Virus record (IMG/VR): IMGVR_UViG_3300029171_000001
Origin: a virus
Length of the DNA: 64,000 nucleotides
Direction: 5' to 3' (one strand)
A model generated the notes under the pieces. The model saw only the letters and a list, made by a program, of their open reading frames with translations. It made no database searches and was not told the DNA's origin. How positions within the stretch are numbered: position 1 is the first letter of the stretch; every line of letters starts with the position of its first letter. Positions 1-36,354 of this stretch are shown here, piece after piece. Both the position numbers and the translations under genes were made by a program.

Positions 1-197
1 ACCATTTTACCCTCTGACATTTTTAATAAATTCAGTTCTCTATTGGGGTTTTTCAAACACCACGCTATATGATTTCCAAATTGTTGGTGTTTTTCATATT
101 GTATCAATTCTTTGCAATGTTTACACTCTTTTTTCATGTTTTTATTTATAAATATAGTGAAAAACTGAAATTGAAGTGTGTTTATTAATATTTTTTG

Positions 198-3403: not shown

Positions 3404-3436
3404 AATTTGATTTTTGTCTAGGTTTTCTCCTAGTTG

Positions 3437-3521
3437 CGGGAGTGAAGGGACTCGAACCCTCGACCTCTGCCGTGACAGGGCAGCATTCTAGGCTTGCGCC
3501 AACCAACTGAACTACACCCCC
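3437..3521 (-). tRNA. tRNA-Asp(GTC) with D-loop GCAA hairpin
   Basis: CTGCC-CTGTCAC-GGCAG; D-loop GGC-GCAA-GCC. Confidence 0.88.
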
Positions 3522-3775: not shown

Positions 3776-3854
3776 ATTTAATTTCCTACGGGGTTGAAAC
3801 TTACGTATGAAGAGCGACTTCACAGAGATAAATAACAACTCACCCGTTTATGTG

Positions 3855-3949
3855 TCAGGAGTGAGGGAGTCGAACCCTCGGCAAGCAACAACTGAGTGCT
3901 CGCACTGGTTTCCAAGACCAGCCGTTTAGACCAACTCACGCAACTCCTG
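3855..3949 (-). tRNA. tRNA-Pro(TGG) with 8-bp extra arm (95 nt)
   Basis: CAGGAGT/ACTCCTG+A73, CTGGT-CTTGGAA-ACCAG, GCGAGCAC/GTGCTTGC arm. Confidence 0.85.
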
Positions 3950-4723: not shown

Positions 4724-5176
4724 TTACCAATTAAGTTTTTTAGCAGTGTTTTTAAATATCTCACATACTTGTTCGGAGATTTGAAATCTGTCCTTGTTTA
4801 AAGAGATAGATTTATAAATATCTCCATCTGCATGTCTCTCGGTTGCAGCCTTCCAATCCATCAACATTTCAATTAAATCGAAAATATCAAATCCATTTAT
4901 GCCATTTTCATAATGTTCTGGATGATGAGAATTGTTTGCATAATGATGATCTAAAGCTGGCTTAAGTTCTTTAAGCGATTCTTTATATTCAGGAGAACCA
5001 TAAGTAAGCCCTTTTAATTTTTCTGTAGCTTTATCAAACCACTCCTTTTCTGGATTTTCAAGTTTGGATTGATCATGTTTGTTTGCTCTATTTAAAAGTT
5101 CTATTGAAGCCTCGTTTAAAAGTTGAGCAACTCTTTTTATGTGTTTTAATGTATCAACTGTACTATCGTATGACAT
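4724..5176 (-). CDS. DUF5662-like protein (HD-like)
   Basis: HDQSKLE, HHYANNSHHPEHY, DLIEMLMDW motifs; start re-set to MSYDST. Confidence 0.7.
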   Translation of the reverse strand: MSYDSTVDTLKHIKRVAQLLNEASIELLNRANKHDQSKLENPEKEWFDKATEKLKGLTYGSPEYKESLKELKPALDHHYANNSHHPEHYENGINGFDIFDLIEMLMDWKAATERHADGDIYKSISLNKDRFQISEQVCEIFKNTAKKLNW

Positions 5177-27550: not shown

Positions 27551-27811
27551 TTATTGATAATTTTTGCGATAAATGCAGACATATTTTACATCATTTTTTA
27601 AATGATCAAAAAAATACTTTTCACATTGTTTAAATGTACCAATTTTCACTAATTCATCAGAAAACATCTCATAATATAAACCATATTTCCCATCTTCTCT
27701 TAAACGAATATAGGCATATCCAGAACCATTACTGTCCTTATTTTTTTTAAAACAATAACTAACCTCATTTAAGATTATACTTTCTTCAATTACAATATCT
27801 TTCTTTTTCAT
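27551..27811 (-). CDS. hypothetical protein
   Basis: 86-aa ORF abutting trpS. Confidence 0.65.
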   Translation of the reverse strand: MKKKDIVIEESIILNEVSYCFKKNKDSNGSGYAYIRLREDGKYGLYYEMFSDELVKIGTFKQCEKYFFDHLKNDVKYVCIYRKNYQ

Positions 27812-28551
27812 TAATTTTTATTACCAAACAACTCCACCATTCTACGAGCAATTGCCTCTTTAAGTTGCAAATTTAATGAAAATTCTTGAATATCCAAACC
27901 CAACTCCCTGGCAATCATCTGTATATTTTTCAAACCTTCTTCATTCATGTTTGCTTTTTTTATCTTTCCCATATAATCTTCATCAAAAAGATATAACACA
28001 TGTTTTTCACCATCTGATTTTGACATTTTCTTCGTAGGGTCAATCAACGACATTACCTTATCCACATGTCCAAACTCATATGTATAATCATCTCTACCAC
28101 CAACACGCTTACAAATATCGTTTGCAAGCTCTATATGAGCAACCTGGTCCCTGCCAACAATAATTATGTCTGGATCATTCATCATAATATCAGCTGCCAT
28201 TAAAACTGGGTATAAAAGCAAACCCATGTCGTACTCAACCTTGTCTTTTTTATCTTTATACTGAGGCATCTTTAACAGTGTAGCAATATTTACCTTGCAG
28301 CAAAGTTTGAAAAAAAGTTCTGTATACAAAGGTGTTTGGTGCACAATTTTTTTGCACCCCAAACGAATAAGCTCTTGTTCGGTTTTATCTGAATAACTAT
28401 CGGTTGTCAAAGAATGATAATTGGCAATCAAAAAAGTAACATCATGACCTTGTTCTTGTAACTCAAGACCTTTTTTAAGACAACCTAGATAGTTACCTAT
28501 GTGAAGTTTGTTAGTCGGTTGAATGCCGATTAATATTTTTTTTGTTTTCAT
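27811..28551 (-). CDS. trpS: tryptophanyl-tRNA synthetase, compact (246 aa)
   Basis: GIQPT..LHIGNY, YPVLMAADI, VG.DQ..H.EL, KKMSKS; start re-set to MKTKK because the ORF-track extension lies in a tRNA. Confidence 0.93.
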   Translation of the reverse strand: MKTKKILIGIQPTNKLHIGNYLGCLKKGLELQEQGHDVTFLIANYHSLTTDSYSDKTEQELIRLGCKKIVHQTPLYTELFFKLCCKVNIATLLKMPQYKDKKDKVEYDMGLLLYPVLMAADIMMNDPDIIIVGRDQVAHIELANDICKRVGGRDDYTYEFGHVDKVMSLIDPTKKMSKSDGEKHVLYLFDEDYMGKIKKANMNEEGLKNIQMIARELGLDIQEFSLNLQLKEAIARRMVELFGNKN

Positions 28552-28553
28552 CG

Positions 28554-28638
28554 CACGTCGAAGAGGATTCGAACCCCTGTGAGACCTAAGTCTGCTGGTT
28601 TTGGAGACCAGTGCTATCAACCACTCTGCCATCGACGT
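28554..28638 (-). tRNA. tRNA-Trp(CCA) with long variable arm
   Basis: CTGGT-CTCCAAA-ACCAG, A1:U72, G73, AGAC-TTAG-GTCT arm; ends 2 nt before the trpS ATG. Confidence 0.88.
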
Positions 28639-28792: not shown

Positions 28793-29386
28793 TTATTTGT
28801 TTTTGCTTTTTAAATATCTTGTTTTTCTACTTGAGTTTTTGTTTTTAGACTTATATGTATCAAGTTGAGAATCACAATTAGGACAAACCAGCCTCAAATT
28901 TATTCTAAAATTATTGTAAGCGTTACCATCTATATGATCGAGAATAAAAACCAATCTAATGTTATTCCACTCGTTTTTTATACCACACACAGCGCATTTA
29001 CAATTCTGTTCTAATAAAATGTGCTTTTTAATAAAGCTCATATTCCTATCATGACAATACTCGTGTTGGTTATTTAAATATTTGGCATATATTTCTTTAG
29101 ATTGATTTTCATAATAACAATCACGACTGCAAAAAGTTTGATCTGGGTGGGTGGTTAACTTTATATTTTTATCACACTCCTTACACTTAATTATTTTAGC
29201 TGTTCCTTTATTAGCTGGAACAAAATTATCTTTAAAATTCGCTCTTTTAGGAAGAATTATACCTAATTTTTTAGCCGCTTTTTTTATAGTTTCATCAGTA
29301 ACTCCATACATTTTACCTATCTTTATATAAGATAGTTTTTTATCAAAAATTAATGTTGACAACTCTTCTTTGTTATAATTTTTCAT
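28793..29386 (-). CDS. HNH endonuclease inside tRNA array 2
   Basis: CAVCG...LDHIDGNAYNN...NLRLVCPNC. Confidence 0.9.
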   Translation of the reverse strand: MKNYNKEELSTLIFDKKLSYIKIGKMYGVTDETIKKAAKKLGIILPKRANFKDNFVPANKGTAKIIKCKECDKNIKLTTHPDQTFCSRDCYYENQSKEIYAKYLNNQHEYCHDRNMSFIKKHILLEQNCKCAVCGIKNEWNNIRLVFILDHIDGNAYNNFRINLRLVCPNCDSQLDTYKSKNKNSSRKTRYLKSKNK

Positions 29387-29483: not shown

Positions 29484-29560
29484 TGATCGCCACGGGAGTC
29501 GAACCCGTATGTGTCCAATTACTCTTTCAACTGCTTAGAAGGCAGAGGAGTTATGCGACC
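29484..29560 (-). tRNA. rearranged tRNA-Arg(TCT)-like RNA
   Basis: GGTCGCA TA ACTC CT CTGC-CTTCTAA-GCAG TTGAAA GAGT AATTGGACACAT, then T-arm and acceptor. Confidence 0.7.
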
Positions 29561-29567
29561 TTTTTTG

Positions 29568-29644
29568 TGACCACCACGGGATTCGAACCCATATGCATCC
29601 ACTTACTCTTTCAACGGTTTAGGAAACCGAGGAGATATGCGGCC
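29568..29644 (-). tRNA. rearranged tRNA-Arg(CCT)-like RNA
   Basis: Same layout with CGGT-TTCCTAA-ACCG. Confidence 0.7.
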
Positions 29645-29647
29645 ATT

Positions 29648-29725
29648 TGTGATTGATAATTGTGGAATCGAACCACTGAGTTTTTACACTCCGACACCTT
29701 GAGCTCAAGTCAATTTACCAATCAC
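29648..29725 (-). ncRNA. degenerate tRNA-like RNA
   Basis: GTGATTG/CAATCAC ends, GTGG-TTCGATT-CCAC arm, no anticodon arm. Confidence 0.4.
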
Positions 29726-29729
29726 TTTG

Positions 29730-29801
29730 TAGTCCCACTAGGAATCGAACCTAGATAATTGGTTTAGAAAACCAAGGCTTTATCCATTAAGCTATGGGAC
29801 C
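29730..29801 (-). tRNA. tRNA-Arg(TCT)
   Basis: TTGGT-TTTCTAA-ACCAA, canonical cloverleaf. Confidence 0.92.
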
Positions 29802-29879: not shown

Positions 29880-29961
29880 TGTTGAGGGGAGGATTCGAAC
29901 CACCAGATGATCAGTACGTACTTAATCACCTTTTCCAAACGCATGCTTATTTGACCTCAAC
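29880..29961 (-). ncRNA. tRNA-like RNA (acceptor and T-arm)
   Basis: GTTGAGG/CCTCAAC+A, T-loop TTCGAAT; middle lacks an anticodon arm. Confidence 0.5.
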
Positions 29962-30158: not shown

Positions 30159-30247
30159 AGGAGAGCATAGGATTCGAACCTAATGCGGGTCTTCCCCGCA
30201 CCCTTTGTTTAGCAAACAAGGACTAGCCCAAGCCAGCATTACTCTCC
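30159..30247 (-). tRNA. tRNA-Ser(GCT)
   Basis: Loop TTGCTAA, TGCGGG/CCCGCA arm, U73. Confidence 0.85.
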
Positions 30248-30327
30248 AATTTTATCTCCGCATTTTTGCGGAGATTACGATGTTTATTCACCGCACAAAA
30301 ATAAAAAACAATACGTCAAAAAACTTT

Positions 30328-30413
30328 TGGCGGAAGATATAGGAATCGAACCCTGCCCTTGCGGACCGCCCCATGCTTCAAACATGGTTGACCACCGATG
30401 GTCGCTACCTTCC
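30328..30413 (-). tRNA. tRNA-Ser(TGA), CCA encoded
   Basis: CCATG-TTTGAAG-CATGG, variable arm, GCCA end. Confidence 0.88.
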
Positions 30414-31204: not shown

Positions 31205-32503
31205 TTACTCTGCCACATTTCCTAAATTTACTGTACCACTCGCTATTTCTTCGTCGATTTTTTTAATAATAAATTCAGATACCTTAGAAATTACTTCCAG
31301 GTTTTTTTGGATTTGCTCTTTATTCGCTTTCCATAATGCCAAATATGTTGCATGATGAGATACTGGTAAATCATAATGTTTTAAAACCACATATGAAACA
31401 CTCTCAGCTTGCAATTCCATAATAGCACTATTTCTTCTCACATCATCCCCTTGATAATAAATAGAAGAAGACCTGTGGTGCATTAATTCATGTGCTATCT
31501 CATGAATCATTGTCGATAATCTTCCAGCCCCAGACACTCCAGTAGAAATATTTATGTGATCTCCAGCACTATACCCTTTCTCTCCTCTTTTTGCGTCGTT
31601 TTGAGTAACATTTATATGCATATCTTTTGCAACTTCTACAACAGCTGCATATAATTTATCAGCTGTTTCTGAAGGAGTGTTTTCACCCCACCATTTTGGT
31701 TCTTCTGGAATTTCACCCCTTTCATCTATCGGCTTGGTATCAGAAATATCAAAAACATTTACCGCCTTAAATCCTCTAATTTCTTTTTCATTACCAAGAG
31801 TACTTCCATCAACTGAACTATCAACATCTTCCACGCCCTTTTGTTTGCTAATTAAAGGAGCAAGTATTGTAATACCCTTAGCACCTTTTTGAACTTGTCT
31901 GAACTTAGACTTCCAAGTATTAAAAGATGCAACACGTGTCGCATCTGGTTTTTGAATATAAATTAAAATTTTATTGAAGAAACTGTAATTATGGAACTTA
32001 GAAAAGAACGTTAAATACCTTCTTATCTCAGCAGAAAGAGCGGCTTCATCAGTTGCGTTTGCTAAATCGCTTATATATTGATCTAGTTTTGTTTTTAACA
32101 AGCTTTTATTATCTGCATCAGCAGCCATTACAGCCCCTTCAACATCTTCGAGTGAATTAATAATGTACTCCACCTTGTTTGCTGTTGAGAGTGTTTTTTT
32201 AGCCATTTCAAATTTGTCTACTGGGATGGCCCAATGATTTCCAGTCCAAATAAATCCATTTTGTTTTAAAAGCGCCTTGTTTTTAAAGGTCTCTTGATTT
32301 GCTGCTTTTCCATCAAGATCAGATACCACGATTAGCCTATTTTGTTCTTTGTCGTGTTGCAATTTTAGCGCTTCACGCATTATACCCTCATTAAGCTCTT
32401 GTGTTATGTGTTGCTTTTCTTCTTTTAAAAGTTCTATTTTGTAAAGCCTTTTGGCCTCAGAAATGATATACTTCTTTAGATCTGAAATGGTGATTTTTGC
32501 CAT
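31205..32503 (-). CDS. ArdC-like ssDNA-binding domain plus HExxH metallopeptidase domain
   Basis: FHNYSFFN.ILI..Q.P.AT.VA.F..W, HEIAHE, ELQAESVSY. Confidence 0.8.
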   Translation of the reverse strand: MAKITISDLKKYIISEAKRLYKIELLKEEKQHITQELNEGIMREALKLQHDKEQNRLIVVSDLDGKAANQETFKNKALLKQNGFIWTGNHWAIPVDKFEMAKKTLSTANKVEYIINSLEDVEGAVMAADADNKSLLKTKLDQYISDLANATDEAALSAEIRRYLTFFSKFHNYSFFNKILIYIQKPDATRVASFNTWKSKFRQVQKGAKGITILAPLISKQKGVEDVDSSVDGSTLGNEKEIRGFKAVNVFDISDTKPIDERGEIPEEPKWWGENTPSETADKLYAAVVEVAKDMHINVTQNDAKRGEKGYSAGDHINISTGVSGAGRLSTMIHEIAHELMHHRSSSIYYQGDDVRRNSAIMELQAESVSYVVLKHYDLPVSHHATYLALWKANKEQIQKNLEVISKVSEFIIKKIDEEIASGTVNLGNVAE

Positions 32504-36261: not shown

Positions 36262-36282
36262 ATATTTTAAAGAACATTTTTG

Positions 36283-36354
36283 AGATCCATGTCGGGTTCG
36301 AACCGACGACCTTGGCTTTTAGAGGGCCTTGCTCTGCCGCTGAGCTAATGGATC
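36283..36354 (-). tRNA. amber suppressor tRNA (CTA anticodon)
   Basis: GATCCAT/ATGGATC, U73, GCTC/GAGC D-stem, loop CTCTAAA, 3-bp anticodon stem plus mismatches. Confidence 0.8.

Follow-up and report, generated by a model that had tools for sequence, protein, structure and literature searches.

Two arginine tRNA-like genes of a phage tRNA array belong to a large, mostly unannotated family with the anticodon arm nested inside the D-stem

The window analysed here is a 64,000-nucleotide (nt) stretch of viral DNA (IMG/VR record IMGVR_UViG_3300029171_000001) with a G+C content of 33.7%. It carries dense minus-strand tRNA arrays, with 21 genes recognised by ARAGORN and phage genes interspersed. Two elements of 77 nt each, called here copy A and copy B and separated by 7 nt, lie in such an array. 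They look like working arginine tRNAs, as judged from their sequence, and their anticodon hairpin is enclosed between the two halves of a D-stem-like helix. This rewired layout is a real and conserved feature, and the class to which both copies belong is a large, mostly unannotated phage family.

When each gene is numbered from 1 to 77 in its own 5' to 3' direction (Table 1), the minus-strand letters match exactly the layout that had been proposed in the initial annotation. Six of the seven acceptor pairs are formed in each copy, the exception being A7.G70 (7:66 in tRNA numbering). No independent D hairpin is present between position 9 and the anticodon arm, as CUC (11-13) pairs solely with GAG (37-39), on the far side of the anticodon hairpin. 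The anticodon loops, UUCCUAA in copy A and CUUCUAA in copy B, both have U33 and a purine at 37. The D-loop-like segment that follows the nested helix is UAAGUGGA in copy A and UAAUUGGA in copy B, with an A after GG in both, and the T-stems (AUGGG/CCCGU and ACGGG/CCCGU) close loops of the form UUCGA(A/C)U. The two copies differ at 17 positions without a single broken stem pair: four pairs are changed on both sides, 3:74 (C-G versus U-A), 17:29, 18:28 and 19:27, the last three bearing out the anticodon-stem covariation claimed earlier, and two, 5:72 and 54:68, are changed on one side via G-U. The minimum-energy fold of copy B includes the nested helix, and the folding energies of the single copies are unremarkable (z -0.8 and -1.2). 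As single-sequence energies do not discriminate here, the support for the structure comes from homologues.

Table 1. Coordinates of the two rewired elements, of their parts and of other features; positions in gene are numbered 1-77 in each copy.
Feature	Positions in gene	Coordinates	Strand	Remarks
Copy A, predicted rewired tRNA-Arg	1-77	29568..29644	minus	anticodon CCU at 29623-29621; from sequence
Copy B, predicted rewired tRNA-Arg	1-77	29484..29560	minus	anticodon UCU at 29539-29537; from sequence
Acceptor stem	1-7 with 70-76		minus	A7 versus G70 mismatch
Bases after 5' acceptor strand	8-9		minus	U, A
Base before nested helix	10		minus	U in copy A, A in copy B
Nested helix	11-13 with 37-39	copy A 29634-29632 with 29608-29606; copy B 29550-29548 with 29524-29522, plus A10-U40 at 29551/29521	minus	CUC:GAG, encloses the whole anticodon hairpin
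Bases before anticodon stem	14-15		minus	C, U
Anticodon stem	16-19 with 27-30		minus	4-base-pair stem, 7-nt loop
Anticodon	22-24		minus	CCU in copy A, UCU in copy B
Linker UUGAAA	31-36	copy B 29530-29525	minus
Core after nested helix	40-47		minus	40-42 UAA; 43-44 two bases; 45-46 GG; 47 A
D-loop-like segment		copy A 29604-29596; copy B 29520-29512	minus
Bases before T-stem	48-52		minus	NN-CAU
T-arm (stem 5 base pairs)	53-57 with 65-69	copy A 29592-29576; copy B 29508-29492	minus
Discriminator	77	copy B 29484	minus	A
Divergent relatives		L041:1487-1570; L081:310-387; L018:4872-4949, 5086-5165	plus	other contigs
Divergent relative		L071:3297-3371	minus	other contig
Canonical cloverleaf tRNA-Arg(UCU)		29729..29801	minus	ARAGORN; Rfam tRNA 69.3 bits; next-but-one upstream gene of the array
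tRNA-like element		29648-29725	minus	78 nt
HNH endonuclease open reading frame		28793..29386	minus	PHROG 10822, E 2.5e-19; 97 nt downstream of copy B
Metatranscriptome X19 contig match		29483-29566		288-nt contig, 3 differences
Decorated twin tRNAs		374-459, 3436-3521, 1833-1919, 3854-3949, 28553-28638	minus
Ser cluster, tRNA-like genes		30159-30248, 30332-30413, 29880-29961	minus	missed by ARAGORN
Trp/Tyr-tRNA synthetase open reading frame		27811-28632	minus	class I domain PF00579, E 4e-39
tRNA with anticodon CUA		36282-36354	minus	amber suppressor type
ArdC open reading frame		31205-32503	minus	N-terminal (anti-restriction) domain PF08401, E 1.6e-10

The same layout is found in many other phages. 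A blastn search with copy B returned seven records, representing six distinct phages, of Streptomyces phages, where the element lies in unannotated intergenic DNA, and also matched unannotated DNA of the crAss-like Kehishuvirus 'tikkala' and of a Vibrio phage. The Kehishuvirus element, with anticodon GAU (OQ198717.1, about 95,577-95,653), occupies an unannotated 77-nt gap in a tRNA array (tRNA-Trp / tRNA-Met), and that of phage Stanimal has the anticodon CCU and a perfect acceptor stem. With other members as queries, blastn added Microbacterium phages, a 462-kb record of an uncultured phage and, for each query, about 45 records of Streptomyces BE-cluster phages, almost all of them unannotated at the rewired element. 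A rewired CCU gene lies at about 91,430-91,506 of OP021680.1, a record of the BE-cluster phages, to which Stanimal and Yaboi belong. Scanning IMG/VR with exact patterns found 38 loci, then 54 and finally at least 119; when positions 47-56 were left free, two additional scans found 69 and at least 119. These scans provide 100 distinct 77-mers, the copies of the window included, and the pooled set contains 172; the layout of copy A is repeated in 98 further distinct 77-mers from other sources. Hundreds of phage contigs share the layout across unrelated groups (Streptomyces, Microbacterium, Vibrio, crAss-like and huge phages), the mean column identity of the homologues being 74%.

In prokaryotes, a pattern scan of one genome per species (185,579 species) gave 26 loci, 18 of which are real. 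The other eight are plainly random, stemless and with nested triplets paired at one or two of three positions, and serve as a negative control. Nearly all real loci are on contigs of metagenome-assembled genomes, and only two isolate genomes carry the element, Pedobacter nyackensis (L154, CAU) and Chryseolinea lacunae (L162, UAU), presumably in prophages; the class is therefore essentially phage-borne. A covariance model, R1, which scores copy A at 79.3 bits and copy B at 86.6 bits with both copies in its seed alignment, finds divergent members in which the nesting is retained and the linker varies, such as a 13-nt linker and a CCC/GGG nested helix in Vibrio phage 424E50-1, or a UAGAAA linker in other members. 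In some divergent relatives (Table 1), the nested helix is shorter, or GG is followed by a UUGAAAAU stretch. As these relatives differ in linker lengths or core, the class is broader than the fixed search patterns.

The nested helix was assessed with a pattern that left both enclosing triplets free. Among the matches listed, the 3-nt core is perfectly Watson-Crick in all 103 distinct IMG/VR elements, with 16 different triplet pairs, the commonest of these 103 being CUC/GAG (35), ACC/GGU (25), CCC/GGG (12) and CGG/CCG (8). The claim that D-stem halves flank the anticodon arm, with a D-loop-like GG behind it, is thereby upheld by a helix that covaries perfectly family-wide. The helix had been drawn with four pairs, (A/U)CUC:GAGU, and its outermost pair does not stand: copy A and 100 of these 103 matches have U.U at 10:40, the A-U of copy B being exceptional, so that the conserved helix is 3 base pairs long.

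In the alignment of the 100 distinct 77-mers (A2), all 19 proposed pairs show changes on both sides, and 97.5% of paired cells are paired versus 59.5% in shuffles, none of 500 shuffles reaching the observed value. The nested helix is 100% paired, with both-sided changes in 36, 53 and 19 sequences for its three pairs; the acceptor helix is 94.9% paired, with all seven pairs covarying, and the T-stem 98.6%. The anticodon stem has four Watson-Crick pairs, 98.8% paired, plus a conserved U.U that replaces the fifth pair. The whole-structure covariation score is 0.967, compared with 0.227 after shuffling and at most 0.175 when partners are slid; sliding by 1-3 columns lowers pairing to 38-45%. When mutual information is computed over the 172 distinct members, all 19 helix pairs rank among the top 20 couplings. 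Outside the helices, this top 20 contains just two pairs, 23:47, which links anticodon base 35 to the base after GG, and 42:52; next in the ranking, both identity positions are coupled with the discriminator. These results establish the secondary structure of the family and its two long-range couplings.

Standard tRNA detection misses these genes, a point that the initial annotation had proposed to check. ARAGORN calls neither copy in its default or mitochondrial modes, and the Rfam tRNA model RF00005 matches neither at E<=10. Copy B gives a match to the tRNA-Sec model (RF01852) of 23.8 bits, below the gathering score of 47, and membership in that family was rejected; copy A gives none. When its threshold is lowered (-ps80), ARAGORN reports a single 92-nt 'tRNA-Arg(cct)' across the region, whose structure is wrong and which was not used.

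The two long-range couplings involve positions of known importance in tRNAs. The base after GG is A in all members with an Arg anticodon (48/48 and 8/8); members with an Ile or CAU anticodon always have U or C at this place (55/55 and 39/39). A20 and C35 form the established identity set of the bacterial arginyl-tRNA synthetase (ArgRS). At the second coupling, A42 is accompanied by U52 in 110 of 115 members (another base in 5) and G42 by C52 in 35 of 47 (another in 12; Fisher 1e-27, phylogeny uncorrected); a scan with position 52 left free finds U52 missing in about 5 of 119 A42 loci among the matches listed. This covariation appears to mirror the A15:U48 / G15:C48 alternation of the Levitt pair and may be called Levitt-like. 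Together with the covariation of the nested helix, the 42:52 coupling and the A20-like base tied to Arg anticodons strongly support the view that selection, not decay, maintains the layout, as the initial annotation had argued.

The anticodons of the family comprise only Arg (ACG, UCU, CCU, UCG, GCG), Ile (GAU, UAU) and CAU, in loops typical of the isoacceptors, and CCA is encoded after the discriminator in 25 of 100 members. The Arg-like identity that had been proposed thus fits both copies, which have Arg anticodons, and is not specific to the family, in which Ile and CAU members are just as frequent. ArgRS and the isoleucyl-tRNA synthetase (IleRS) are both class Ia enzymes that mainly read the anticodon. 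UCU differs from UAU, and CCU from CAU, by the single base at position 35, so that one ancestral rewired scaffold could have spread between Arg and Ile, with N20 tuning identity.

Rewired and canonical genes of the same anticodon rarely share an array. Across 94 distinct arrays that each contain at least eight canonical tRNAs, the rewired gene is joined by a canonical one with its anticodon in only 8 of 106 cases; six of these eight concern CAU, where that canonical gene could be tRNA-Met. A canonical GAU tRNA occurs in 2 of 57 arrays with a rewired GAU versus 21 of 37 without; for ACG the counts are 0 of 12 versus 29 of 82, and for UAU 0 of 17 versus 24 of 77. Canonical UCU occurs in 47 of the 93 arrays devoid of a rewired UCU. 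This near mutual exclusion indicates that the rewired gene fills the slot of a decoder.

In a tree built on 68 columns, with the anticodon loop, N20 and the discriminator left out, isotype labels are clustered (17 changes versus 68 in shuffles); supported branches force at least 2-4 isotype switches, with a resolution too poor for the order of events. Copies A and B form a supported clade (97) with a UCU element, L016, of an 89-kb contig, and would thus be a tandem duplicate pair with a wobble change (U34/C34). L016 likewise carries A10 and the A7.G mismatch. The shared A7:G66 mismatch, which had been taken as a sign of selection, is indeed present in both copies; it is a lineage trait inherited in common with L016 and constitutes no independent evidence of selection.

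All these results make it very probable that both genes are chargeable tRNAs in which the 5' strand of the D-stem and the D-loop have moved behind the anticodon arm. They would be elongator tRNA-Arg (CCU and UCU) of a phage-borne Arg/Ile class with an internally permuted D-domain. U8-A9 would be followed by the equivalent of 22-25, normally the 3' strand of the D-stem, which would continue through C-U into the anticodon arm much as 22-25 plus 26 do in canonical tRNAs; the UUGAAA linker would then lead to the 5' half of the D-stem (10-13) and to a relocated D-loop composed of A14, R15, two pyrimidine-rich bases, G18 G19, N20 and A21, and three nucleotides ending in Y48 would lead to the T-stem. 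The D and anticodon helices could form one continuous hairpin of approximately normal combined length, with the acceptor and T helices stacked as usual, and the relocated D-loop would present the T-loop with G18G19, Y48 with R15 and the synthetase with N20. An L-shape would thereby be reached via a different strand path. This correspondence with the canonical D/anticodon stack is our inference, and the assignment to canonical 10-13 and A14-N20 is supported by the identity base and the Levitt-like pair. The RNAs would be cut out of a minus-strand tRNA array transcript and, since no CCA is encoded, would receive it from a CCA-adding enzyme; ArgRS would charge both via C35, U36, A20 and A73, and both would read AGA/AGG. 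The L-shaped fold, as well as processing, charging and decoding, are thus predictions.

Several points weigh against this reading. The acceptor stem has an A.G mismatch at its base in both copies, and two G-U pairs there in copy A, and the anticodon stem has only four Watson-Crick pairs plus the conserved U.U. The UCU copy is redundant here, as a canonical tRNA-Arg(UCU) is kept beside it, unlike in most arrays. The covariation and Fisher statistics are uncorrected for shared ancestry, and the conservation of the core is partly by construction, since the search patterns fixed most of its invariant positions (U8 A9 U10, C14 U15, UUGAAA, U40 A41 and GG). Finally, the evidence for aminoacylation and ribosomal use is indirect (the A20-like base tied to Arg anticodons and the near mutual exclusion with canonical isoacceptors), and transcription, end processing and CCA addition are predictions.

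One possibility, which we consider doubtful, is that the rewired core is not a frozen accident and results from adaptation in a tRNA conflict, the altered body evading a tRNA-cleaving host defence or phage enzyme. The path of the D-domain would be changed and the anticodon loop, elbow and synthetase determinants kept, so that ArgRS, IleRS, EF-Tu and the ribosome would still accept the molecule. The decorated twins of many other tRNAs described below hint at a general strategy of diversifying tRNA bodies.

It is improbable that the elements act outside translation, as tRNA-shaped decoys or regulators, for instance as a sponge for an anticodon nuclease or defence protein, or as a recognition or integration site. 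Their non-canonical fold, rejected by the standard tRNA models, the redundant canonical tRNA-Arg(UCU) that adjoins them and the HNH endonuclease gene 97 nt away would suit such a role. However, the synthetase identity base tracks the anticodon in 150 of 150 members, a tie for which a decoy aimed at an anticodon-loop nuclease would have no use, and the near mutual exclusion with canonical genes of the same anticodon suits a slot-filling decoder rather than an add-on. The acceptor stems, the discriminator and the occasional encoded CCA are also as in chargeable tRNAs.

Another explanation, that only the gene is permuted and that cutting and rejoining of the RNA yield a canonical mature tRNA, has a known parallel in algae and archaea, where permuted and split tRNA genes mature to normal tRNAs (PMC3218864). 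We regard it as very improbable: because the acceptor strands are at the gene ends, circularising and re-opening cannot restore the order, and excision and re-insertion of an internal block would be required. The nested helix is conserved and covaries, the linker is conserved, and both speak for an RNA that folds in the order in which it is transcribed; by eye, no bulge-helix-bulge motif is evident, no formal scan having been made. Least credible of all is that the copies are decaying pseudogenes, remnants of a rearranged canonical tRNA-Arg kept only by recent duplication, to which the A.G acceptor mismatch of both copies and their ordinary folding energies might point, since the layout recurs in hundreds of contigs from unrelated phage groups, every helix shows compensatory changes, the 17 differences between the copies cost no pair, and the homologues, with the column identity given above, are not one recently spread identical sequence.

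The codon usage of the window matches a demand for tRNAs of this kind: AGA (20.6 per 1000 codons) and AGG (6.3) make up 75% of Arg codons, compared with 9.0 per 1000 for all CGN. No second CCU tRNA was found in the window or in a related 154-kb IMG/VR contig, G001 (estimated to be 59% complete), so that copy A is, as had been claimed, the sole AGG-specific tRNA of both; it would not be the sole reader of that codon, a UCU tRNA with a modified U34 usually decoding AGG too. G001 carries both elements, copy B in identical form, among about 37 tRNAs detected by ARAGORN, and this relative indicates that the source is a large environmental phage. DNA of this phage is present in aquatic, wetland, freshwater and wastewater metagenomes. 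The ArgRS core (PF00750) and the CCA-adding enzyme (PF01743) were not found in G001, a contig of about 59% completeness that is distinct from the window; G001 has a class Ia synthetase-like open reading frame (ORF). Four RNA-labelled wastewater runs were compared and yielded contigs only: a contig of metatranscriptome X19 spans copy B (Table 1), and copy B is found exactly in two runs labelled 'RNA? probably DNA'; contigs of RNA-labelled runs cannot show transcription, ends or strand and are neutral either way. Scanning the surroundings of the array for promoters and terminators gave no informative result.

A further tRNA-like element, recognised by no tool, separates copy A from the canonical tRNA-Arg(UCU). 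Its T-arm is GUGG/CCAC with a UUCGAUU loop, and its acceptor may comprise 7-8 base pairs; it also contains a palindromic hairpin, CUUGAGCUCAAG, and a second hairpin, GAGU...ACUC, whose A-rich loop has a G at the U33 position. In one metagenome contig, 82 other letters replace 163 nt between copy B and the canonical gene. On the other side of the copies, the HNH endonuclease ORF is about 70% similar in DNA to HNH genes of crAss-like phages and is possibly a mobile neighbour; in several Streptomyces phages, ORFs with the annotation HNH endonuclease or endonuclease VII overlap or adjoin a homologous rewired tRNA.

The arrays also contain, for many amino acids, 'decorated' twins of about 85-96 nt with the same anticodon as a normal tRNA. 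The Gly(GCC) and Asp(GUC) twins have an extra small hairpin in the D-loop and are mislabelled Gly(acc) and Ser(aga) by ARAGORN, and the Ala, Pro and Trp twins have a long variable arm, which in bacteria is normally found only in Leu, Ser and Tyr tRNAs. The same pattern is seen in G001 for Cys, Ile, Lys, Thr, Asn, Met and Asp. In the Ser cluster, one tRNA-like gene has a tRNA-Sec-like fold (44.4 bits, gathering 47) with the anticodon GCU, and two are weaker (24 and 19.6 bits). The Trp/Tyr-tRNA synthetase ORF lies directly downstream of two tRNA-Trp genes; as listed, its 5' end runs into the long tRNA-Trp, and the ORF probably starts further in. The tRNA with anticodon CUA is flanked by two tRNA-Cys genes, and TAA is the stop codon in 41 of 48 long ORFs. 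An ArdC ORF is also present (Table 1).

If the rewired class works with bacterial synthetases and ribosomes and its D-stem strands are indeed exchanged around the anticodon arm, it would show that an L-shape can be built with a different strand topology. In textbooks and in PMC11551756, the cloverleaf is the rule for every bacterial-type cytosolic tRNA, with armless or odd folds found in mitochondria only, and the interest of the class is that it would contradict this assumed universal strand order in bacterial-type translation. It would offer structural biology and genetic-code engineering an alternative scaffold whose identity is set by the anticodon and one D-loop base. Through this systematic blind spot of tRNA finders, phage AGA/AGG/CGN and AUH repertoires would be counted too low, with consequences for work on codon usage and host adaptation. 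Rewired tRNAs are directly testable in culturable phage-host pairs, candidates being BE-cluster phages of Streptomyces, Microbacterium phage A3Wally, and Kehishuvirus 'tikkala' with Bacteroides cellulosilyticus as host. No published description of the fold was found in the full-text literature, subscription journals being outside this coverage, and the predicted rewired tRNA is, on this evidence, a structural variant new to tRNAs, with a non-cloverleaf design.

Compared with canonical class I tRNA-Arg and tRNA-Ile, the rewired genes share the 7-base-pair acceptor, the A/G discriminator, the 5-base-pair T-stem with its GUUCRANYC loop, the 7-nt anticodon loop with U33 and A37, the overall length of 77 nt, and apparent equivalents of U8, A14, R15:Y48, G18G19 and, for Arg, A20. 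They differ from them in that the 5' strand of the D-stem and the D-loop come behind the anticodon arm and not before it, without a separate D hairpin, in the variable loop of about 3 nt, in the added UUGAAA linker and in the anticodon stem of four Watson-Crick pairs plus U.U.

The lack of a D hairpin and the short linker between acceptor and anticodon arm are reminiscent of D-armless metazoan mitochondrial tRNA-Ser(AGY) and of the synthetic mini HisT (PMC11551756). In D-armless tRNAs, the D-loop and the D/T elbow contact are lost and the shape is Y-like; natural arm-less tRNAs are restricted to mitochondria, all known bacterial tRNAs being canonical (PMC11551756). The rewired genes, in contrast, keep a D-loop with GG, an R15-like base, the N20 identity base and a D-stem, so that the distinction drawn from D-armless tRNAs in the initial annotation is justified by the retained D-loop. 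The tRNA-Sec family (RF01852), like other tRNAs whose stem lengths deviate, has a non-standard, ribosome-compatible core; unlike the rewired genes, it keeps the cloverleaf order. A non-standard order of segments is also seen in the permuted tRNA genes of Cyanidioschyzon merolae and in permuted or split archaeal tRNA genes, where the 3' half comes before the 5' half and RNA processing restores a normal cloverleaf (PMC3218864). The normal termini of the rewired genes set them apart from circularly permuted ones, as had been pointed out: their displacement is limited to an internal block (10-21), and the covariation of the helix implies folding in the permuted order.
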